DNA of 64,000 nt from Escherichia phage vB_vPM_PD114: the sequence record MH675927.1, one strand, 5' to 3'. Positions 11,723-21,280 of this stretch are shown here, piece by piece. The notes under the pieces are model-generated. The model worked only from the letters and a program-made list of their open reading frames with translations, was not told where the DNA came from and did no database searches. The position numbers and the translations under genes were made by a program. Positions within the stretch are counted from its first letter, which is position 1. The number at the start of each line of letters is the position of its first letter.

Positions 11723-12127
11723 TTATTGTAGCTTAAGTGAACTGCGAAGACGTTTCTCTTGCTGATCACGAATATGTTGTGGAACCTCATGAATTGAGTC
11801 GTTACCGTGCCTATTTTCAACAACTAAAGAGATAACTTGATAACCAAACTCTTCAGCAAGAGTAAAATAAGGTTTAAGTTCTTTCTCTGTGGTTGAAGTG
11901 TTAGAGACAATAATCTTTTTAATATTAGATGCCATAGCATCACGAACAATACTCTGACACCATGCGTGTGCTTTACCTACATTTTCTGGCTTCCAATCGT
12001 AAACACCACTTTCTGTGTAATGATATTGATCTGCCTCACAGATAGGCCAATAACCTTCAGAAATAATTTCTGCTACTGTAGATTTACCTGCACCTGAAAC
12101 ACCACGTAAAATGATAAGTTGTTTCAT
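11723..12127 (-). CDS. polynucleotide 5'-kinase (T4 Pnk kinase-domain-like)
   Basis: MKQLIILRGVSGAGKST (P-loop) and IIVSNTSTTEKELKPYFTLAEEFGYQV, colinear with the kinase domain of T4 polynucleotide kinase; no HAD phosphatase domain. Confidence 0.6.
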   Translation of the reverse strand: MKQLIILRGVSGAGKSTVAEIISEGYWPICEADQYHYTESGVYDWKPENVGKAHAWCQSIVRDAMASNIKKIIVSNTSTTEKELKPYFTLAEEFGYQVISLVVENRHGNDSIHEVPQHIRDQQEKRLRSSLKLQ

Positions 12128-13060
12128 TTAGCCTCCAAAGAAGTTTTCTATTTCTTTACGTCGCTCTTGTGGATCTAAAGCAGCCCATTGAGTCTTGGTA
12201 AAGTTGTTTCGAAGCCATTCTAGCAAAGTATAATATTCTTCGTCAACAATTTGTTTAGCATTTTTTGGGTTGTCCCAAATCATATCCCACTTCTTATTGC
12301 CACCACGCATAAGGAATTTCTTAGCAAGATAGTATGGTGACTTAATCTTTAACAGCAAGTTAAACGGATAGTTTGTTTCACGAACTACAAACCCTTCGTG
12401 CTTACATTGTTTAGACATTTCAACAACATCTGAAAATTTAATCATCTGATAAACTTCAGGACGTTTAAATTTTGTAACAGATGCAATCCCATCGAGCACA
12501 CCTTCAGGTAGCATGAAACTTGTCCCATCATCATTTTGAATTCTTGCTCCGATTAAGTATGCACCTGGTTCTTCTTCAACAATATGTGGATCAGAAGGAT
12601 CACAGATTTCAAAAAGGAAAGTTGCTTTTGCACTTTCTGTCCACTTAATGAAATATTCTATGTCATCACACTCGGAAACAATATGGTTCTTGGCAAGAGT
12701 TGCAAAATCTGACTCTAGGCTCCCTGTTGTTGATACAATAAGTTGCCCTTTGTACACACCTACAGATGCCATAAAACCGTTTACTTTACGGACAGCATCT
12801 ACAAGTTGGTCTGCTGGAAGATCTGTACCATTCTCAAAACGATTAAAGATTTTAGTAAAAGGCCAAATAACAACATTGTCTTCTGAGTCAACAACCAACC
12901 CACGACAATCTAGAAGTCGTTTGTCAACGTTCCACAAGTTATCCCAGAATACATTGTTTTTGTATTTAAGTACAGCAAGACCAGCATACTCTCCAGATTT
13001 AACTTCTTTTTTATGCACTAAACCTTTTGCAATCAGGTCATCACAATTGAACTTAGCCAC
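12128..13060 (-). CDS. RNA-ligase-like nucleotidyltransferase (putative RNA ligase)
   Basis: KVNGF (KxNG motif I-like), EGFVVR (motif IV-like), KIKSPYY (motif V-like); lies between phosphoesterase and kinase genes. Confidence 0.45.
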   Translation of the reverse strand: MAKFNCDDLIAKGLVHKKEVKSGEYAGLAVLKYKNNVFWDNLWNVDKRLLDCRGLVVDSEDNVVIWPFTKIFNRFENGTDLPADQLVDAVRKVNGFMASVGVYKGQLIVSTTGSLESDFATLAKNHIVSECDDIEYFIKWTESAKATFLFEICDPSDPHIVEEEPGAYLIGARIQNDDGTSFMLPEGVLDGIASVTKFKRPEVYQMIKFSDVVEMSKQCKHEGFVVRETNYPFNLLLKIKSPYYLAKKFLMRGGNKKWDMIWDNPKNAKQIVDEEYYTLLEWLRNNFTKTQWAALDPQERRKEIENFFGG

Positions 13061-13061
13061 C

Positions 13062-13613
13062 TTAATCTCCTTTGATTATCTTATGATGGTCTACAACAAC
13101 AATATCACGCTTATCCATAATAGAGATGATTTCGTCAAAATGCAAGATTTTTCCGTGTGCGTCCCAACCAACGTCCAACATTTTCCCATACAAATGATCA
13201 GGGAATGATCCGTGAGAGTGCCCGTGTAGCATGATTGATCCATGCCCTTGTTTATTCCAGGAAGCCATAGGGTAATGACTTAAGACGAAGAACAGTTTCT
13301 GATATTTCACTTCGTCATAATACACCACCTCGCCATATTCTGCAAGCACTTCTCGGTGTTTGCTGTAATCATGGTTCCCAACACAGTAAGTGATATCACC
13401 TTGAAGACGTGAAGCAATTTTACGGGTATCTTCTTCAGTCCCGAAACAGAAGTCGCCCAAGTGCCACATCTTGACACCAGGACTCGTAGCACATTTATTC
13501 CATGCTTCAATCAGTGCTTCTGTCATATGATCCATATCTTCCCACGGGCGATATTCAGGAGCAAACTCTCGAATACGTTTGTGCATAAAATGCAAATCAC
13601 TTGTAATAAACAT
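13062..13613 (-). CDS. calcineurin-like metallophosphoesterase
   Basis: GDFCFG...(x)GNHDY...HGHSH metallophosphatase signature; 1-nt gap to downstream gene. Confidence 0.6.
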   Translation of the reverse strand: MFITSDLHFMHKRIREFAPEYRPWEDMDHMTEALIEAWNKCATSPGVKMWHLGDFCFGTEEDTRKIASRLQGDITYCVGNHDYSKHREVLAEYGEVVYYDEVKYQKLFFVLSHYPMASWNKQGHGSIMLHGHSHGSFPDHLYGKMLDVGWDAHGKILHFDEIISIMDKRDIVVVDHHKIIKGD

Positions 13614-13975
13614 TAGTATAATCCCTCGCTGAATAGTTCACTGTCGTGACCATTTCTTTCATAGTTAATTTGTTTGGCGTTATCTGCAATGATATAAGCA
13701 TCTTTGCGACTCCACCAATTATAATACTGATCAATAAACCCTTGATTATCAGGTAAGCAAAACAGCTTATCAATCAATCCTGCATCTTTTAAAACATTAA
13801 GTTGTGCAGATAGTACAGGATTTGCATGCCTAACACAAAGAATAATCAATTCTTCGCCATTGTTGAGAATATACTTATTCGCAGCGCATACTATAACACG
13901 TTGAGCATAGTGATCCTCACCAATCCAAGTAAGAGGTTGGTAACAAATATCATGTTGATTAGTAGCGCACATCAA
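13613..13975 (-). CDS. hypothetical protein (120 aa)
   Basis: ORF track. Confidence 0.35.
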   Translation of the reverse strand: MMCATNQHDICYQPLTWIGEDHYAQRVIVCAANKYILNNGEELIILCVRHANPVLSAQLNVLKDAGLIDKLFCLPDNQGFIDQYYNWWSRKDAYIIADNAKQINYERNGHDSELFSEGLY

Positions 13976-14130
13976 TTTTCTCCGTACTCTTTTAATCTAT
14001 CAGCGAAAAAACTGTAATCAGGAAGTAAAAGATCATTACTCGTATCGTTACAGTTTTCTTCATCTTTATAGATAAAACGCCCTTCATCCTCTTCTTGCTC
14101 TGACCAAACTGAGTAATGCATAATACCTAC

Positions 14131-14505
14131 TTAATAGTTAACACGTTTAATTTCAACACCATAGGATGAAATAAAATTTTCCTTAGCTAACATATATTTA
14201 CCGGCAGCAGAAGGATTTGATGTATGAACATAGATAGTTTTAAGAGCATCCCATTCACCAGCGTACAACATACATTCTACGTCTAAGAACGCATGATATC
14301 CTTCTTGATCTTCTCCAAGATCATTATCGAAGTGTATCTCTGAGATATTATTGAAATTATCTTCATCTGAAACAAAAGATAACCAATCCTCAAAAGATTT
14401 TAACCAAATGGCATCCTCATAACCATAATCTTTAGGATCTCTTAAATCGTCTAACCAAAGAATTTTAGCCACTATCAACCCCCTTCCTGTTTCTCTTCTT
14501 TCCAA
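14131..14505 (-). CDS. hypothetical protein (124 aa)
   Basis: ORF track. Confidence 0.35.
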   Translation of the reverse strand: MERRETGRGLIVAKILWLDDLRDPKDYGYEDAIWLKSFEDWLSFVSDEDNFNNISEIHFDNDLGEDQEGYHAFLDVECMLYAGEWDALKTIYVHTSNPSAAGKYMLAKENFISSYGVEIKRVNY

Positions 14506-15729: not shown

Positions 15730-16137
15730 CTAATTAACGTCAGCACTATGATTGTTGAGAGTATAGGATACTCCATCGCCCAAGTCAACATGAATCTCAA
15801 CTCCTAATTGTCTTTCTAATGGTAAACGTTTTGAGAATTGATAATTACAAAGTTTACAGTCTAAGTCAAGCAACTCATGTTTGCTTAAACCTGCAACGAT
15901 AACTTTGCTTCCTACTGTCCACTCAATACCTTCAAAGTTATCTCTTCTTTTCAAAATGTCAAGTAAGAAGATGATTTGTTGCCATTCCGTAGACAAGTCT
16001 TCTTCATAGAATGCAGAACAAAAAGTTTTATCATCGTAGAAAGCATACATTATGCCTCCATCTATTGTTTCACTTCTAACGTAACGTGTGACCCTCATTA
16101 TTCCCTCCTGTATGGCTCTGTAACGAGCTAATAGCAC
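15730..16137 (-). CDS. hypothetical protein (135 aa), first gene of the minus-strand block
   Basis: ATG preceded by CAGGAGGG; ORF track. Confidence 0.4.
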   Translation of the reverse strand: MLLARYRAIQEGIMRVTRYVRSETIDGGIMYAFYDDKTFCSAFYEEDLSTEWQQIIFLLDILKRRDNFEGIEWTVGSKVIVAGLSKHELLDLDCKLCNYQFSKRLPLERQLGVEIHVDLGDGVSYTLNNHSADVN

Positions 16138-16228
16138 CTAAGATATGCAATCACCTTACCTCACAGTAAAACTCGTTACAATCGTTTTTAGGAGGTTCAG
16201 GTTGTACTTAAAAATAATCTAAAAGGTG

Positions 16229-16257
16229 TTGACAAACGCAAAAAAGTATGCTACCCT
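16229..16257 (+). promoter_or_regulatory. sigma70-like promoter TTGACA-N17-TACCCT
   Basis: Read directly; followed by GC-rich inverted repeat CCCCCG...CGAGGGGG. Confidence 0.35.
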
Positions 16258-16437
16258 AACCCCCGAAAAACGCCGAGCGCAGCGAGGGGGTGTTATCTAA
16301 TCTTGTGATACATGATCTAACAGACAACTGAGTAGTCTACATATAGCACTATGTTATGTCTATAATACTAACATACATGCTCTATACTAACAATAGATTA
16401 TTTATTAATTTTATTATTAATTAAATAATAAATATCT

Positions 16438-16466
16438 ATTGACTTTAGATCTATCTGTATGTAGAG
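16438..16466 (+). promoter_or_regulatory. sigma70-like promoter TTGACT-N17-TAGAGT with AT-rich UP-like element upstream
   Basis: Read directly; ~40 nt before the Prs-like gene start. Confidence 0.5.
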
Positions 16467-16506
16467 TAGAGAACATAAAGTCCTAACGCAACTAAGGAGA
16501 TAAAGA

Positions 16507-17400
16507 ATGAAAGTTAGTATTCTGCATGGTGTTGACTGTTATGTTACTGATGTAGACGTTAAAGTGTTTACATTCTCTGGTGGAGAACAACATGTTCAAT
16601 TAGATACGAATCTATCAGGTTTCAATCATGCTACAGACAGAATCTTACTCACTTTAGAAGTAAGATCTGCTAAAGACTTGATGACTTTGGTTATGACTAA
16701 GAATGCATTGGACAATATGCTATATCATAAACCATATTGTGTTGATTTACTCATGTTGTATGTGCCGTATGCACGACAAGACAGAGTGTGTGAGCCTGGG
16801 GAAGCATTCGGAGTTAAAGCATTTGCTTCTATAATTAATTCATTAAATTTCTCACGTGTTATCGTTGCTGATCCGCATAGTGATGTTACTCCAGCAGTGT
16901 TTGACAGACTCTGTGTAATACCTCAAGAGGAGATTGCTTACGAAACTTTAAAGTGGAAGTTACGTATGGAGAATTTTGCTCTTGTTAGCCCTGATGGTGG
17001 TGCTCTTAAGAAAATATTTAAATTATCTAAGAAAATGTCTTTAGATGTGTTCTGTGCAGAGAAGGTTAGAGATACCGCAACAGGTGCTATTGTTCGTACA
17101 GACATTTCTGTACAGGATTTCAATAAGCGTAACCTGATGATCGTAGATGATATCTGTGATGGTGGTAGAACTTTTATTGAATTGGCTAAAGTGCTACGTG
17201 CTCGTAACGCAGGTAAGATTGAGTTATATGTTACACACGGTATCTTCTCTAAAGGTCTTAAAGAGTTGAGTGAACACTTTGACTGCATTCATTCTCTTAA
17301 TGTGTGGGAAGATAACATCCAAGAAGATTCCGGTGTTCTTGTTAAGAATCAGTCAGATTTGCAACAACAAATTGTATCTCCATACGTGTGGAATTTTTAA
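16507..17400 (+). CDS. PRPP-synthetase-family pyrophosphokinase; candidate ADP-ribose pyrophosphokinase (Adps) of NARP1
   Basis: PYARQDR, LVSPDGGALKK, LMIVDDICDGGRTF, VTHGIFSKG align with Prs motifs (PYFGYARQDRR, VVSPDIGG, VLVDDMIDTGGT, ATHPIFSG); RBS AGGAG; followed by NAMPT-like gene. Confidence 0.7.
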   Translation: MKVSILHGVDCYVTDVDVKVFTFSGGEQHVQLDTNLSGFNHATDRILLTLEVRSAKDLMTLVMTKNALDNMLYHKPYCVDLLMLYVPYARQDRVCEPGEAFGVKAFASIINSLNFSRVIVADPHSDVTPAVFDRLCVIPQEEIAYETLKWKLRMENFALVSPDGGALKKIFKLSKKMSLDVFCAEKVRDTATGAIVRTDISVQDFNKRNLMIVDDICDGGRTFIELAKVLRARNAGKIELYVTHGIFSKGLKELSEHFDCIHSLNVWEDNIQEDSGVLVKNQSDLQQQIVSPYVWNF

Positions 17401-17410
17401 ATAATAAGTG

Positions 17411-17439
17411 TTGACAATAGGGAGTATGCTTAGTAAGAT
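17411..17439 (+). promoter_or_regulatory. sigma70-like promoter TTGACA-N17-TAAGAT overlapping inverted repeat GGGAGTAT/ATACTCCC
   Basis: Read directly. Confidence 0.4.
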
Positions 17440-17471
17440 ACTCCCACATTAACAAACAAGGAGACATAACT

Positions 17472-19205
17472 ATGAATATTTTTGCACCTTTTGCTACTGA
17501 TTGGTACAAACCTGGTCACAAGCAGATGTACAATCAAAATACAAAACTCATTTTCTCTAATTTAACTCCTCGTAATGATAAAAACTTTGCACACTATGCA
17601 GATCGTGAAGCACGTGGTGTGATTGTTTTAGGTATTCGTCGAGCAGTCACTGATGCTCTTGTAACTATGTGGGATAGCTTCTTTAAAATGTCTCGTAGTG
17701 CAGCAGTAAATAAATTTTATCGTATGTCTAAAAATGCATTAGGTGCTTCTGCTCCTTCTGCTGAATGTTGGGGAGAATTGCACGATTTAGGTTATCTTCC
17801 GCTGGAAGTTCGATCTCTGCCAGAAGGTGTTTTGTGTCCTATTGGTGTTCCTGTGTTTACTGTGCATAATACTTTAGAAAAATTCTTTTGGTTAACTAAC
17901 TATGTGGAAACACTGTTGTCAGATGAAACTTGGAAGACAATGACTAATGCCACAGCAGCTTTTCAGTATAAGCGTATCGCTATGGCATATGCGATGGCAA
18001 CGTGTGATAATATTGATCACGTTAACTTCCAGTGTCATGACTTTAGCCTACGTGGTTTAAGTAATATCGAAGATGGTTATAAGAGTGGTATCGCTCACTT
18101 GGCATCGTTCACAGGAACAGATAATATTCTGGCTATTGAAACTGTGCATGACTATTATGGTATTGATTATGATCAGTTTGTTGCAGGTTCTATTCCGGCA
18201 ACAGAACATTCAGTAGCAACGACTAACATTGGAGCTATTGTTGAAGATCTGAAGAAACATTTCCCACATCTTAAAGATGATGTAGATGGGCTTCGTTATG
18301 TAGCAGAAAAAGAGTTTCTTCGTCGTTATATCGAAGAAATTGTTCCAGAAGGTTTTTGTTCATATGTAGCAGACTCTTATGACTATTGGGCTGTATTGAC
18401 TCGCATTCTGGTAGAATTGAAAGATTCCATTATGTCACGAAATGGTCGTCTTGTTATTCGTCCAGATTCAGGAGATCCGGTTAAAGTTGTTGCAGGATAC
18501 AATGTTGAATCTTTTGATAACTATGAAGACCTCTTAAATAATGGTATTGCGACAGCCACTGAAGTAGTTCATTTGGCTGATGTTAATAAGTATTACAATG
18601 TTCTTCAGGATTGCAGTGTTGCTGACTGTATTGATGAAACTTATGAGATTCCTTATTGTGAAGCAGTAGGTTCTATTCAAATCCTTTGGGAAGTGTTTGG
18701 TGGTACTATCAACCGAAAAGGCTACAAGGTTCTTGATCAGCATATCGGTATGATTTATGGTGATTCTATTACTGTTGAACGAGAACACGAGATCTTACGC
18801 CGACTGAAGAAGAAAGGTTTTGCAGCTTCCAATATTGTATTTGGTGTTGGTAGTTATACTTATCAGTTCAATACACGAGATACTTTTGGTTTTGCTGTTA
18901 AAGCAACAGGTAGTATTATCGGTGAACACGAAATTTTGGTAAGTAAGGAGCCTAAAACTGATCCTGGTAAACGCTCTGCAAAAGGTTTTATTAAGGTTGT
19001 TAAGGATACCAATGGTAATCTGTCTCTTGTAGATAATCTTTCTTTTAAAGATATCCAGGATGAAGACAATGAGTTACAAGTTATCTTCAAGGATGGTAAG
19101 GTTATTACACCACAAGTAGAAGGCCGTGATGAAACATTCACTGATATCCGCAACCGTGTTGACGTAGAGGTTCTTCGTACTATGGGAACCATCCAGGTTG
19201 ACTAA
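17472..19205 (+). CDS. nicotinamide phosphoribosyltransferase-family protein; candidate nicotinamide ADPR transferase (Namat) of NARP1
   Basis: 577 aa, NAMPT/NadV-like length and motifs (e.g. SIPATEHSVATT, GDSITVE); RBS AAGGAG; immediately downstream of the Prs-like gene. Confidence 0.7.
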   Translation: MNIFAPFATDWYKPGHKQMYNQNTKLIFSNLTPRNDKNFAHYADREARGVIVLGIRRAVTDALVTMWDSFFKMSRSAAVNKFYRMSKNALGASAPSAECWGELHDLGYLPLEVRSLPEGVLCPIGVPVFTVHNTLEKFFWLTNYVETLLSDETWKTMTNATAAFQYKRIAMAYAMATCDNIDHVNFQCHDFSLRGLSNIEDGYKSGIAHLASFTGTDNILAIETVHDYYGIDYDQFVAGSIPATEHSVATTNIGAIVEDLKKHFPHLKDDVDGLRYVAEKEFLRRYIEEIVPEGFCSYVADSYDYWAVLTRILVELKDSIMSRNGRLVIRPDSGDPVKVVAGYNVESFDNYEDLLNNGIATATEVVHLADVNKYYNVLQDCSVADCIDETYEIPYCEAVGSIQILWEVFGGTINRKGYKVLDQHIGMIYGDSITVEREHEILRRLKKKGFAASNIVFGVGSYTYQFNTRDTFGFAVKATGSIIGEHEILVSKEPKTDPGKRSAKGFIKVVKDTNGNLSLVDNLSFKDIQDEDNELQVIFKDGKVITPQVEGRDETFTDIRNRVDVEVLRTMGTIQVD

Positions 19206-19276
19206 ATAAAAACTTCGTGATAAGATTAAGGTAAGGAGAGCCTACAACTGCCCTGGATGGGCTTCACGAAGGATTT

Positions 19277-19498
19277 ATGAAACAACATAATTTTTATTTT
19301 CGTTGCCGAGCCTGTAACAGACACTTGACTAATCATTCCCGTAGAGACAGGAATGGTAATATTCAAGAGTCGGATCTATGCTCGATTTGTACAAGTTTGG
19401 CATTCGATGACAGTCCCGAAAGGGTTTATCAACATCAAAGTGTAACTGATCTTCTTCTAAATTACACAACACCAGAGGAGGAATTAGATTTCACATAA
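19277..19498 (+). CDS. hypothetical zinc-ribbon-like protein (73 aa)
   Basis: CRACNRH ... CSIC Cys pairs; ORF track. Confidence 0.35.
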   Translation: MKQHNFYFRCRACNRHLTNHSRRDRNGNIQESDLCSICTSLAFDDSPERVYQHQSVTDLLLNYTTPEEELDFT

Positions 19499-19511: not shown

Positions 19512-19622
19512 ATGTCTACAGAAATTATTTTTGGCTTATCTGTTTTTATTGCTATTGTATCTTTTGTATGCGGTTATACACTAGGTTACAGATCAAGAAA
19601 AAATATTGTAAAAACTAGTTGA
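19512..19622 (+). CDS. very small hydrophobic peptide (36 aa), not in ORF track
   Basis: AAGGAAACAGT-ATG; MSTEIIFGLSVFIAIVSFVCGYTLGYRSRKNIVKTS. Confidence 0.25.
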   Translation: MSTEIIFGLSVFIAIVSFVCGYTLGYRSRKNIVKTS

Positions 19623-19648
19623 CAACATAGCTAGTTATTTGCTAAGAT
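19619..19648 (+). promoter_or_regulatory. sigma70-like promoter TTGACA-N18-TAAGAT
   Basis: Read directly. Confidence 0.4.
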
Positions 19649-19678: not shown

Positions 19679-19945
19679 ATGACAGAACGTACTTATGGTA
19701 AAGAATTGATTGAGAAGCACGTATTGATTGATAATAAAGGTGGAGCAATCTTTATTTTTGAACCTGAATCAGTTCTTACTGAAAACGAAAATGGTAGCGT
19801 TAGCCTTAAAACAGAAAGTTTGGTAATTGACTTCCTTGCTCTTCTGGATGAAATGGGGCTTCCGCACGAAGAAGAAGCAGCTATTGCTTTGATTACAGTT
19901 CTTCTGGAGAAACGCGAAGCTGGTGAAATGACCCAGTATGCTTAA
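19679..19945 (+). CDS. hypothetical protein (88 aa)
   Basis: AAAGGAGAAAACT-ATG; ORF track. Confidence 0.4.
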   Translation: MTERTYGKELIEKHVLIDNKGGAIFIFEPESVLTENENGSVSLKTESLVIDFLALLDEMGLPHEEEAAIALITVLLEKREAGEMTQYA

Positions 19946-19952
19946 TATTCAA

Positions 19953-20028
19953 GGTTCCATAGCTCACTGACGAGAGCGCACACCTCATAAGTGTCGAGGG
20001 CAGGGATTGTAACCCTGGGGAACCACCA
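19953..20028 (+). tRNA. tRNA-Met(CAT)-like, atypical T-loop
   Basis: Acceptor GGTTCC/GGAACC (position 7 mismatched), D-stem GCTC/GAGC, anticodon loop CTCATAA, T-arm CAGGG-ATTGTAA-CCCTG, encoded CCA. Hand-folded. Confidence 0.4.
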
Positions 20029-20739: not shown

Positions 20740-20825
20740 GGTAGATTGGTGAAATGGTAGCCACAACAGTTTGCTAAACTGTCGTCGGAAACGGCGTGTA
20801 GGTTCAAGTCCTACATCTACCGCCA
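20740..20825 (+). tRNA. tRNA-Ser(GCT), class II
   Basis: Acceptor GGTAGAT/ATCTACC, anticodon arm ACAGT-TTGCTAA-ACTGT, long variable arm, T-arm GTAGG-TTCAAGT-CCTAC, discriminator G, CCA encoded. Confidence 0.6.
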
Positions 20826-20845
20826 AATTTATGCGAGGAGGATGT

Positions 20846-21226
20846 ATGCCAAGCAATGATTATATGCGGGAATACATGAAAACTCGGTGGCAGAAGCGAA
20901 GAGCTTCCGCAATCCTCCAGCTTGGAGGTAAATGTGTTAATTGTGGGTCTGTAGATGACTTGGAATTTGATCATAAAGATTCAAGCGAGAAGAAGTTTTA
21001 TATTAGTCGAATGAGTTCATGCTCTGAGGCTAAATGGCAGGAAGAACTTGCCAAATGTCAACTTTTGTGCCATGACTGTCACATGAAGAAGACAAGAATA
21101 TCCCAAGACATGGGAAACAGAATTAGAACAACGGTGTGTGTTTGCGGGGCAGTATTTTATAGTACAAAGGCTTATGCTGGACATACACGGTGGTGTAAAG
21201 AGTATGCATCGTTAGCCAAGCGGTAA
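20846..21226 (+). CDS. HNH endonuclease (free-standing, inside tRNA cluster)
   Basis: CVNCGSVDDLEFDHKD...CQLLCHDCHMKK...C-terminal Cys/His cluster; RBS GAGGAGG; last ~7 codons overlap the 5' end of the following tRNA. Confidence 0.55.
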   Translation: MPSNDYMREYMKTRWQKRRASAILQLGGKCVNCGSVDDLEFDHKDSSEKKFYISRMSSCSEAKWQEELAKCQLLCHDCHMKKTRISQDMGNRIRTTVCVCGAVFYSTKAYAGHTRWCKEYASLAKR

Positions 21227-21280
21227 GGCACTTGACTTTTAATCAAGGGAGCGAAGGTTCGAATCCTTCACGATGTACCA
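21206..21280 (+). tRNA. tRNA-Lys(TTT)
   Basis: Acceptor GCATCGT/ACGATGT (G1-U72), D-stem GCC/GGC, anticodon arm CTTGA-CTTTTAA-TCAAG, T-arm GAAGG-TTCGAAT-CCTTC, CCA encoded. Confidence 0.55.

Follow-up and report, generated by a model that had tools for sequence, protein, structure and literature searches.

Two adjacent genes of Escherichia phage vB_vPM_PD114 (MH675927.1), a Justusliebigvirus (phi92-like) coliphage, very probably form the core two-gene NARP1 pathway of this phage group. The window analysed was a 64,000-nt stretch of this record, and all positions refer to its first letter. The results computed here are the structure of the genes, their placement in family and clade, the conservation of catalytic residues and the presence of the Namat signature. 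Substrate specificity and an anti-defence phenotype we infer from homology to the systems of Bas63, SPbetaL1, Fado and DyoEdafos, of which the window pair is, by sequence, a distant homologue and not a copy.

In the proposed mechanism, defences including SIR2-HerA/Nezha, type I Thoeris, DSR1/2 and SEFIR would split NAD+ into ADP-ribose and nicotinamide. Adps would then form ADPR-PP by moving pyrophosphate from ATP onto the 1'' position of ADP-ribose, and Namat would couple ADPR-PP with nicotinamide to yield NAD+ directly, with no need for a host NMN adenylyltransferase. Pathway chemistry and anti-defence phenotypes have been documented for Bas63, SPbetaL1 and Fado, and in vitro activity for Adps and Namat of DyoEdafos. 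No enzymology or deletion phenotype for phi92-like NARP1, including that of Bas60-62, was found in later NARP1 papers or the wider literature, and the mechanism was therefore drawn from homologues.

Organization of the adps-namat locus

The ORF map placed both genes on the plus strand, separated by a 71-bp spacer, and reproduced exactly the coordinates of the two adjacent genes in the preliminary description. Features of the locus were as follows.

16138..16506, no strand: divergent intergenic control region (ORF map; sign flip of GC skew at ~16 kb)
16439..16467, plus strand: sigma70-like promoter consensus match TTGACT-17-TAGAGT, 9/12, upstream of adps (consensus only)
16494..16499, plus strand: adps ribosome-binding site AAGGAG (sequence)
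16507..17400, plus strand: adps, ADP-ribose pyrophosphokinase homologue (Prs family, Adps clade), 297 aa (ORF, profiles, tree)
17411..17439, plus strand: sigma70-like promoter consensus match TTGACA-17-TAAGAT, 10/12, in the adps-namat spacer (consensus only)
17458..17463, plus strand: namat ribosome-binding site AAGGAG (sequence)
17472..19205, plus strand: namat, nicotinamide ADP-ribose transferase homologue (NAMPT family, long form), 577 aa (ORF, profiles, fold)

Replication and nucleotide-metabolism genes form a leftward block that stops at 16137 and is followed by a 369-bp divergent gap, after which the rightward block runs adps-namat-tRNA, with an array of 15 tRNAs beginning at 19953, 747 bp downstream of namat. 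The pair thus lies at the early/tRNA boundary, as had been proposed. It opens the transcription unit and is adjoined by small genes of unknown function, and an AT-rich stretch lies at about 16400-16440 within the intergenic region. Gene order around adps-namat is identical in phage PHB05. Nearby phosphoesterase and cREC_REC genes were considered as recyclers of ADPR-cyclic-phosphate and dropped, as nothing ties them to NARP1; they lie 2-4 kb away on the opposite strand, within a T4-like RNA-ligase repair cassette.

In both genes the AAGGAG lies 7-8 nt from the ATG. Each gene had also been credited with a sigma70-like promoter of its own; consensus matches do stand upstream of each, and both are to be read as consensus matches that carry no implication of promoter activity. 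A further TTGACW-N17-TAAGAT stands at 19198, and a version with an 18-nt spacer occurs at 19619. With at most one mismatch allowed, 6 matches to TTGACW-N17-TAAGAT were found in the window against 1.6 expected, a count reached in 0 of 100 shuffles.

Assignment of the 297-aa protein to the Adps clade

Family assignments to PRPP synthetases and NAMPT, made previously from the letters, were borne out by profile matches far beyond chance. The adps product matched PHROG 619 'ribose-phosphate pyrophosphokinase' (E 3.8e-91) and TIGR01251 (E 3e-34), and the namat product matched PHROG 448 (E 1.5e-188), NF006629 (E 1.2e-138; 463 bits, above the equivalog cut-off of 405) and Pfam NAPRTase (E 6e-38). Placing the 297-aa protein by pairwise similarity was tried and dropped, with a phage K Namat-linked protein scoring 67 bits and E. 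coli Prs 72 bits. Since pairwise similarity alone does not place this protein, its placement drew on motifs, on the profile of model scores and on a bootstrapped tree.

Against TIGR01251, which models a broad Prs subfamily, the window protein scored 118 bits, narrowly above the cut-off of 113, compared with 138 for Bas63, 106 for SPbetaL1, 98 for ICP1 and 70 for phage K, and with 423 for E. coli Prs. Among NCBIfam profiles it fell below every Prs equivalog or PRK cut-off by about 200-480 bits (the best scores being 98 bits on NF002320, cut-off 297, and 97.5 bits on NF002095, cut-off 296). This behaviour on Prs models resembles that of validated Adps proteins and supports the Adps assignment.

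The motifs quoted in the preliminary description were all located in the protein: PYARQDR at aa 87-93, VSPDGG at aa 160-165, and VDDICDGG within the last of the segments below.

16870..16881, plus strand: Adps-type DPHS motif, aa 122-125 (alignment)
17059..17091, plus strand: Adps-type flexible catalytic loop EKVRDTATGAI, aa 185-195 (alignment)
17143..17172, plus strand: ribose-phosphate binding loop VDDICDGGRT, aa 213-222 (alignment)

At the DPHS site cellular Prs proteins read DLHA followed by QIQGFF, and the DDICDGGRT core, which is the same in the window and Bas63 proteins, reads DDM(I/V)DT(G/A)GT in Prs. The three motifs DPHS, K-x-R-[DN]-x-x-TG-x-I and DDICDGGRT are shared by the window protein with Namat-linked proteins; in the alignment it also lacks N- and C-terminal segments of Prs. 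The catalytic lysine of Adps, described as K162 in SPbetaL1 and equivalent to K197 of B. subtilis Prs, is present as K186; within EKVRD this residue occupies the alignment column of the HKQR lysine in SPbetaL1 and of the essential DKRR-loop lysine in Prs.

A neighbour-joining tree (279 columns, 500 bootstraps), with four Prs sequences as the only outgroup, split these four cellular proteins from all Namat-linked proteins with 100% bootstrap support; the Namat-linked side holds the window protein, Bas63 gp79 and SPbetaL1 Adps. Tree, motifs and model scores thus side with Adps in the Prs-versus-Adps comparison, and by sequence the 297-aa protein belongs to the Adps clade, apart from cellular Prs.

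These results bear directly on a classical salvage route, in which a true PRPP synthetase and a true Nampt (NadV) would make NMN from PRPP and nicotinamide and the host NadR or PncC route would finish NAD+. This route is what all public annotations of the two genes imply, and it gains from the scores that pass their cut-offs on TIGR01251 and NF006629. Opposed to it are the position of the window protein on the Adps side of the fully supported split, its Adps-type rather than Prs-type loops and its large shortfall on the Prs equivalog models. In published work, SPbetaL1 Adps made no product from the Prs substrate, and the counter-defence of Bas63 was not abolished by deletion of host pncC and nadR.

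Active site, selectivity clamp and fold of the 577-aa protein

The following segments of namat were located.

17565..17597, plus strand: selectivity-clamp loop (SCL) region TPRNDKNFAHY, aa 32-42 (alignment)
18195..18215, plus strand: PATEHSV segment containing H246 (alignment)
18495..18671, plus strand: 59-aa insertion, aa 342-400 (alignment, structure model)
18849..18881, plus strand: selectivity-clamp helix (SCH) signature GSYTYQFNTRD, aa 460-470 (alignment; published Namat-specific adenine-stacking motif)

All nicotinamide, ribose and phosphate contacts seen in the SPbetaL1 crystal are kept in the alignment (D10, Y12, F191, S192, R194, D217, A243, R330, D332, G430, D431, G460, S461, T468, R469 and D470). 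The core residues D13', Y15', F189, R192, D215, R306 and D308 of SPbetaL1 correspond to window D10, Y12, F191, R194, D217, R330 and D332, which are invariant among 45 homologues. H246, which probably corresponds to the catalytic histidine of Nampt, likewise does not vary in the 45 long-form homologues, and TEHS around it is kept in six of six aligned sequences.

The published SCH pattern of Namat is GS-X-Phi-X-Phi-X-Phi-TRD, in which the X is aromatic at the third and seventh positions, and window GSYTYQFNTRD fits it. Y or F occupies position 462 in all 45 long-form homologues and position 466 in 42 of them. In the alignment the signature was not present in KVP40 NadV (GGGLLQQLDRD), Xanthomonas Nampt (GGALLQKVDRD) or H. 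ducreyi NadV (GAQTYQRNTRD), and the first two, which are true Nampts, have none of its aromatic residues. In the SCL of Namat, the third residue is described as R, K or Y, supplying or preceding the residue that stacks on adenine; stacking has been assigned to the residue after the Lys, which is Trp in Bas63. The window protein reads K37-N38-F39, with Lys third, Asn next and the aromatic F39 one position further on; conservation of K37 and of F39 reaches 90% or more across the 45 long-form homologues. The Asn where stacking would be expected counts against the NARP1 reading. KVP40 NadV also has K-F there, so this loop discriminates poorly.

The best PDB sequence match was SPbetaL1 Namat 9W5X (E 4.5e-118, compared with 5e-50 for mammalian NAMPT). 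An AlphaFold2 model (pLDDT 90, pTM 0.90) was closest to 9W5X and 9W5W (TM 0.93, rmsd 2.7 A), with human NAMPT at an rmsd of 4.0 A. Fold alone was rejected as a discriminator, since it separates these structures only weakly from H. ducreyi NadV (TM 0.93 versus 0.92), and the clamp motif was therefore taken as the discriminating evidence.

For classical salvage, the nearness in fold of H. ducreyi NadV, deposited in complex with NMN, counts in its favour, as does the PRPP-dependent NMN synthesis that Namat retains in vitro; because of this residual activity, classical chemistry may contribute. The Namat-specific aromatic clamp, which validated Nampts lack, argues against it. Taking the evidence on both genes together, we consider classical salvage highly improbable as the main role of the pair. 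The NARP1 reading, which had been suggested from the letters, is favoured by clade placement, adjacency, the catalytic Lys, the Namat core and the SCH signature.

The 59-aa insertion is found in Bas63 and other homologues from Gram-negative phages, and not in the crystallised SPbetaL1 Namat; its predicted fold is a small beta/alpha subdomain. This confidently folded subdomain stands right after the catalytic RPDSGDP loop, and the same protein carries the K-N-F clamp loop. On this basis there is a slim chance that the long form of phi92-like and other Gram-negative phages differs functionally from the crystallised short form, in which case the subdomain and the clamp loop could control access to the active site, provide a docking site for Adps so that labile ADPR-PP is channelled, or widen the donor range.

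Distribution and annotation

By megablast, the adps-namat pair is 97-99% identical across 55 phage records, among them the BASEL phages PaulScherrer, EmilieFrey and JohannJBalmer. The window Adps is 99.7% identical to Bas62 QXV81594, and the window Namat is 100% identical to a phage SD2 protein. Osterman et al. (10.1101/2024.02.11.579819) reported the NARP1 operon in four BASEL phages. Their supplementary tables, which cover Adps and Namat homologues, give the proteins of phi92, PHB05, JohannJBalmer, PaulScherrer and EmilieFrey as Adps homologues, in rows marked 'Namat within 10 genes: Yes' and 'Adps-associated', and the Adps table also includes Bas62. NARP1 in the phi92-like lineage is therefore already known and listed in the founding paper, and the pairing noted here matches the architecture reported there. 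In the same study, 97% of the Adps clade adjoins a Namat homologue; at the window locus the two genes are neighbours on the same strand.

The records that are annotated give ribose-phosphate pyrophosphokinase with nicotinamide/nicotinate phosphoribosyltransferase, or hypothetical proteins. The value of the present assignment lies in re-annotation, since the current labels hide a putative counter-defence function; beyond the NARP1 literature of 2024-2026 it brings no new biology. The study of Osterman and colleagues is said to have appeared later in Nature. The assignment is relevant to the choice of phages for therapy, since members of Justusliebigvirus serve against pathogenic E. coli. These phages are predicted to withstand SIR2-, TIR- and SEFIR-type depletion of NAD+ and, without an Adpp gene, still to be sensitive to aRES.

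The pair might instead perform NARP1 chemistry mainly as housekeeping, recycling ADP-ribose released by NAD+-consuming enzymes of phage or host in normal infection. Such a role would suit the 97-99% identity in all 55 matching records, unexpected for a dispensable accessory gene, and the occurrence of NARP1-type pairs in bacterial chromosomes outside prophages, including one in Geminocystis that shares an operon with an NrtR regulator. It is nevertheless scarcely probable, given that deletions of the Bas63 and Fado operons showed a phenotype on defence-carrying hosts, that ADPR-PP was seen only with SIR2-HerA present, and that the window pair, heading a transcription unit next to its small neighbours, occupies a position typical of counter-defence genes.

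Comparison with known systems

The NARP1 operon of Bas63 (JohannRWettstein, genes 79-80) is arranged like the window pair, with adps preceding namat in the same orientation and a short gap between them. The two Adps proteins have DPHS, K-x-R-[DN]-x-x-TG-x-I and DDICDGGRT in common, and the two Namats (577 aa in the window, 593 aa in Bas63) are of the long form, with the insertion after RPDSGDP, the SCH aromatic clamp and Lys at the third SCL position. Identity is 36% for Adps (gp79) and 39% for Namat (gp80), so that NARP1 membership was tested and not assumed. A near-identical relationship between the two operons was considered and rejected, as Bas63 is a Felixounavirus and was not among the 55 megablast hits. 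The phages belong to different groups (Stephanstirmvirinae for the window, Ounavirinae/Felixounavirus for Bas63), the SCL reads K-N-F in the window and K-W-F in Bas63, and the window pair lies at the divergent switch upstream of the tRNA array, whereas that of Bas63 lies between nrd genes and rIIA/B. Genetics and metabolomics back the Bas63 operon; the window operon is known from its sequence.

SPbetaL1 Namat (9W5X, 9W5W; NAR 2026, PMC12774641) is the best PDB match of the window Namat by both sequence and fold, with about 38% identity in the structural alignment. All its NAD+-contacting core residues are kept, and its SCH motif is GSFTYQYNTRD where the window has GSYTYQFNTRD. At 491 aa it is without the 59-aa insertion and the extra helices at ~aa 253-290, and its SCL stacking residue is Arg40 where the window has K37. 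SPbetaL1 Adps is 35% identical to the window Adps over 176 aa (local BLASTP) and reads DDLSSFGGT in place of DDICDGGRT.

NARP1-AP (Adps-Adpp-Namat, Vibrio phage Gary) and the DyoEdafos RyDEP locus contain the same Adps and Namat core. A search near the pair for the extra genes of extended variants, Macro Adpp and RyDEP, found none, nor did Pfam scans detect a Macro domain between or beside adps and namat or in 15 flanking ORFs; the window operon is the two-gene core, missing the third gene. As aRES yields ADPR-1''-phosphate and there is no Adpp gene, the window phage should stay aRES-sensitive.

NARP2 (Vibrio phage KVP40 NadV and NatV) and cellular Nampt/NadV share with the window Namat the NAMPT fold and a nicotinamide-binding catalytic core. 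KVP40 NadV is 27.5% identical to the window Namat, and where the latter has its aromatic clamp it reads GGGLLQQLDRD. The window pair departs from NARP2 in its adenine clamp and its Adps-type partner gene, and the table of Osterman et al. 2024 labels phi92-type proteins as associated with Adps. E. coli Prs (b1207, class I) shares with the window Adps the fold family, the PYARQDR pyrophosphate loop, VSPDxG and the catalytic Lys, but is only 28% identical to it and has different substrate loops.

Gene pair and family assignment

The two genes read in the preliminary description as a NARP1 pair (Adps, of the Prs family, and Namat, of the NAMPT family, which together form a phage NAD+ reconstitution pathway) were located on the ORF map, and the coordinates and lengths proposed there were exact:

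16507-17400, + strand, adps homologue, 297 aa (ORF map)
17472-19205, + strand, namat homologue, 577 aa (ORF map)

The 297-aa protein (window Adps) was assigned to the Prs family (PHROG 619, E 3.8e-91; TIGR01251, 118 bits) and carries all of the motifs first quoted for it, PYARQDR (aa 87-93), VSPDGG (aa 160-165) and VDDICDGG (aa 213-220). The 577-aa protein (window Namat) was assigned to the NAMPT family (PHROG 448, E 1.5e-188; NF006629, 463 bits; Pfam NAPRTase, E 6e-38).

Adps clade membership

Pairwise scores of window Adps (ICP1 ORF228, 160 bits; Bas63 gp79, 137; SPbetaL1 Adps, 83; Namat-linked protein of phage K, 67; E. coli Prs, 72) left its placement unsettled, and membership was therefore tested explicitly. 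Window Adps was aligned with Bas63 gp79, SPbetaL1 Adps (L011:30311-31129), ICP1 ORF228, phage K gp201, eight database homologues and four cellular Prs (E. coli b1207 and the Terriglobus, Cutibacterium and Microbacterium sequences from the NARP1 paper's own table). In a neighbour-joining tree (279 columns, 500 bootstraps), every replicate (100%) set the Prs outgroup of four sequences apart from the whole Namat-linked group. All aligned Namat-linked proteins share [DE]PHS (DLHA and then QIQGFF in Prs) and a catalytic loop K-x-R-[DN]-x-x-T-G-x-I (EK186VRDTATGAI in window Adps; DKRR in Prs). The ribose-phosphate loop is altered (DDICDGGRT in window Adps and Bas63; DDM(I/V)DT(G/A)GT in Prs), and about 20 N-terminal and 25 C-terminal Prs residues are missing from the Namat-linked proteins. 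K186 is the conserved lysine whose mutation inactivated SPbetaL1 Adps. On NCBIfam Prs models window Adps behaves like validated Adps, falling about 200-480 bits short of each equivalog cut-off (TIGR01251 bits: window 118, Bas63 138, SPbetaL1 106, ICP1 98, phage K 70, E. coli Prs 423).

The closest cellular homologue of window Adps (45% identical) lies on the Geminocystis sp. NIES-3708 chromosome (AP014815.1; L013 5001-8191) and carries the motifs DPHS, KIRDTKTGKI and DDICDGGKT. It shares an operon with a NAMPT-like gene that has the Namat clamp GSYTYQYVTRD, after which comes an NrtR-type regulator (Nudix and WHD_NrtR). NrtR regulators respond to ADP-ribose, and the operon would be consistent with NARP1-type recycling of ADPR that is encoded on a chromosome and controlled in response to ADPR. 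NrtR is mentioned in neither NARP1 paper (10.1101/2024.02.11.579819; PMC12774641).

Namat core and adenine clamp

Two elements make up the Namat clamp: a helix motif (SCH), with the pattern GS-X-Phi1-X-Phi2-X-Phi3-TRD in which X is aromatic, and a loop of variable sequence (SCL) with R, K or Y as its third residue (PMC12774641). The core contacts are kept in window Namat (D10, Y12, F191, S192, R194, D217, A243, R330, D332, G430 and D431), and its SCH, GSYTYQFNTRD (aa 460-470), fits the published pattern exactly. Across 45 long-form homologues G460, S461, R469 and D470 are invariant, with Y or F at position 462 in every sequence and at position 466 in 42. The SCL fits less clearly: it has K37 in third position, as in Bas63, then a non-aromatic Asn38 and, one residue further, a conserved F39. 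Classical salvage, in which PRPP and NMN are the intermediates, is very improbable for the pair: validated Nampts lack the aromatic clamp residues of window Namat (KVP40 NadV, GGGLLQQLDRD; Xanthomonas Nampt, GGALLQKVDRD; H. ducreyi NadV, GAQTYQRNTRD).

In a PDB sequence search with window Namat, the SPbetaL1 Namat crystal structures 9W5X and 9W5W scored best (E 4.5e-118), ahead of H. ducreyi NadV (6.8e-101) and mammalian NAMPT (5e-50). The AlphaFold2 model (pLDDT 90.2, pTM 0.90), a monomer of a protein whose clamp spans the dimer interface, was nearest to 9W5X and 9W5W (TM 0.93, rmsd 2.7 A), with HdNadV next (TM 0.92) and human NAMPT further off (TM ~0.90, rmsd 4.0 A); in this check of NadV against Namat, proposed earlier, the protein was nearest Namat by a narrow margin.

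Proposed mechanism

In the work of Osterman et al. that described NARP1 (bioRxiv 10.1101/2024.02.11.579819), SPbetaL1 homologues converted ADPR and ATP to ADPR-PP, and ADPR-PP and nicotinamide to NAD+; deletion of genes 79-80 of Bas63 (JohannRWettstein) gave ~20-fold sensitivity to SIR2-HerA, and NAD+ was no longer sustained; ADPR-PP (m/z 720.010) was seen only when wild-type phage was combined with the defence system; Bas63 NARP1 needed neither pncC nor nadR of the host; and the phenotype was widened to DSR2 and type I Thoeris via Fado and engineered SBSphiJ (10.1101/2024.02.11.579819).

The window pair very probably acts in the same three steps: defence NADases would free ADP-ribose and nicotinamide, Adps would pyrophosphorylate ADP-ribose using ATP, and Namat would couple ADPR-PP with nicotinamide to regenerate NAD+. 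The gene pair, its clade placement, the catalytic residues and the clamp signature were established here and support the NARP1 reading; by analogy with the homologues, substrate specificity and an anti-defence phenotype are attributed to the pair. There is little chance that this chemistry serves mainly for housekeeping.

Genomic surroundings

An AAGGAG ribosome-binding site precedes both genes, and sigma70-like elements recur in the region:

16439-16467, + strand, sigma70-like consensus match directly upstream of adps (consensus match only)
17411-17439, + strand, TTGAC(A/T)-N17/18-TAAGAT, sigma70-like consensus match directly upstream of namat (consensus only)
19198-19226, + strand, TTGACW-N17-TAAGAT, ahead of the next small ORF after namat
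19619-19648, + strand, TTGACW-N18-TAAGAT (18-nt spacer), ahead of the second small ORF after namat

With at most one mismatch, TTGACW-N17-TAAGAT occurs six times in the window (1.6 expected; six reached in 0/100 shuffles), and the recurrent TTGAC(A/T)-N17/18-TAAGAT element may be a phage-specific promoter class. The sigma70-like promoters proposed for the two genes are here consensus matches only.

A leftward block up to 16137 (NrdA, thymidylate synthase, thymidine kinase, exonucleases, DNA ligase, RNA ligase, phosphoesterase and small ORFs) is followed by a 369-bp divergent intergenic region, where GC skew switches sign, and then rightward by adps, namat, two small ORFs, a 15-tRNA array from 19953, spanin, and terminase and portal genes; given this order, the location was fairly described as an early/tRNA boundary.

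The small ORFs at 19277-19498 (+; 73 aa, two CxxC pairs, PHROG 37033) and 19679-19945 (+; 88 aa, PHROG 15056) belong to families without assigned function and, because of their position between namat and the tRNA array, are candidates for further counter-defence genes. Inside the array, an HNH homing-endonuclease ORF (20771-21226, +; 151 aa, PHROG 4234, E 9e-25) extends into the ends of both tRNA-Ser (20740-20825) and tRNA-Lys (21206-21280); the equivalent position in PHB05 has no annotated CDS, and PHB05 downstream coordinates are offset by ~250 bp. Just upstream of the divergent region lies a T4-like RNA-repair cassette (11723-14505, -):

11726-12127, - strand, AAA_33 kinase-like ATPase
12131-13060, - strand, Rnl1-type RNA ligase (PF09511, E 5.5e-15)
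13065-13613, - strand, metallophosphoesterase (weak match)
14134-14505, - strand, cREC_REC "cyclic-phosphate processing receiver" domain protein (PF20274, E 3e-14)

Taken with the array of 15 tRNAs, the cassette suggests a counter-measure against anticodon nucleases.

Phage lineage

The region is 99.3-99.4% identical to that of Escherichia phage vB_EcoM_PHB05 and matches 55 Justusliebigvirus records (phi92-like, Stephanstirmvirinae) at 97-99% identity, including phi92 and the BASEL collection phages JohannJBalmer (locus tags bas62_), EmilieFrey and PaulScherrer; the phage SD2 Namat homologue is 100% identical to window Namat. Four records named "Campylobacter phage" (MG065639, MG065645, MG065656 and MG065689; host C. 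jejuni) carry the pair at 97.7-97.8% identity in ~146-kb genomes resembling phi92-type coliphages, and seem likely to be mislabelled or contaminated by E. coli phage.

Comparison with known systems

The supplementary tables of the founding paper contain the phi92, PHB05, JohannJBalmer, PaulScherrer and EmilieFrey proteins, with sequences starting MKVSILHGV... and MNIFAPFATDWYK... as in the window proteins; phi92-like entries are marked "Namat within 10 genes: Yes" in Table 1 (Adps homologues) and "Adps-associated" in Table 2 (Namat homologues) (10.1101/2024.02.11.579819). The NARP1 assignment of this lineage, which partly prompted that paper, is therefore already in the literature, and public annotations of the phi92-like pair are outdated.

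Near-identity to the founding Bas63 operon (Felixounavirus, MZ501086, 87 kb) was ruled out by identities of 36% (gp79 and window Adps, E 3e-43) and 39% (gp80 and window Namat, E 4e-136) and by the absence of Bas63 from the near-identical DNA matches; the window pair is a homologue of that operon, not a copy.

NARP1-AP has the Macro-domain phosphatase Adpp, whereas the window pair keeps to the core of two genes: its 71-bp adps-namat spacer leaves no room for an Adpp or RyDEP gene, and no Macro domain was found in the 15 flanking ORFs scanned. From this two-gene form we infer that phi92-like phages should remain sensitive to aRES.

Bas63 Namat and window Namat are both of the long form. A 59-aa insertion in window Namat (aa 342-400; 18495-18671, +), which immediately follows the catalytic RPDSGDP loop, is confidently predicted to fold as a small beta/alpha subdomain (pLDDT ~90) and receives no mention in the structural paper (PMC12774641). 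The crystallised SPbetaL1 Namat lacks both this insertion and the extra helices of window Namat at ~aa 253-290; the insertion is also absent from the ICP1 and phage K Namats and is common to Bas63 and the whole Gram-negative phage Namat subfamily.
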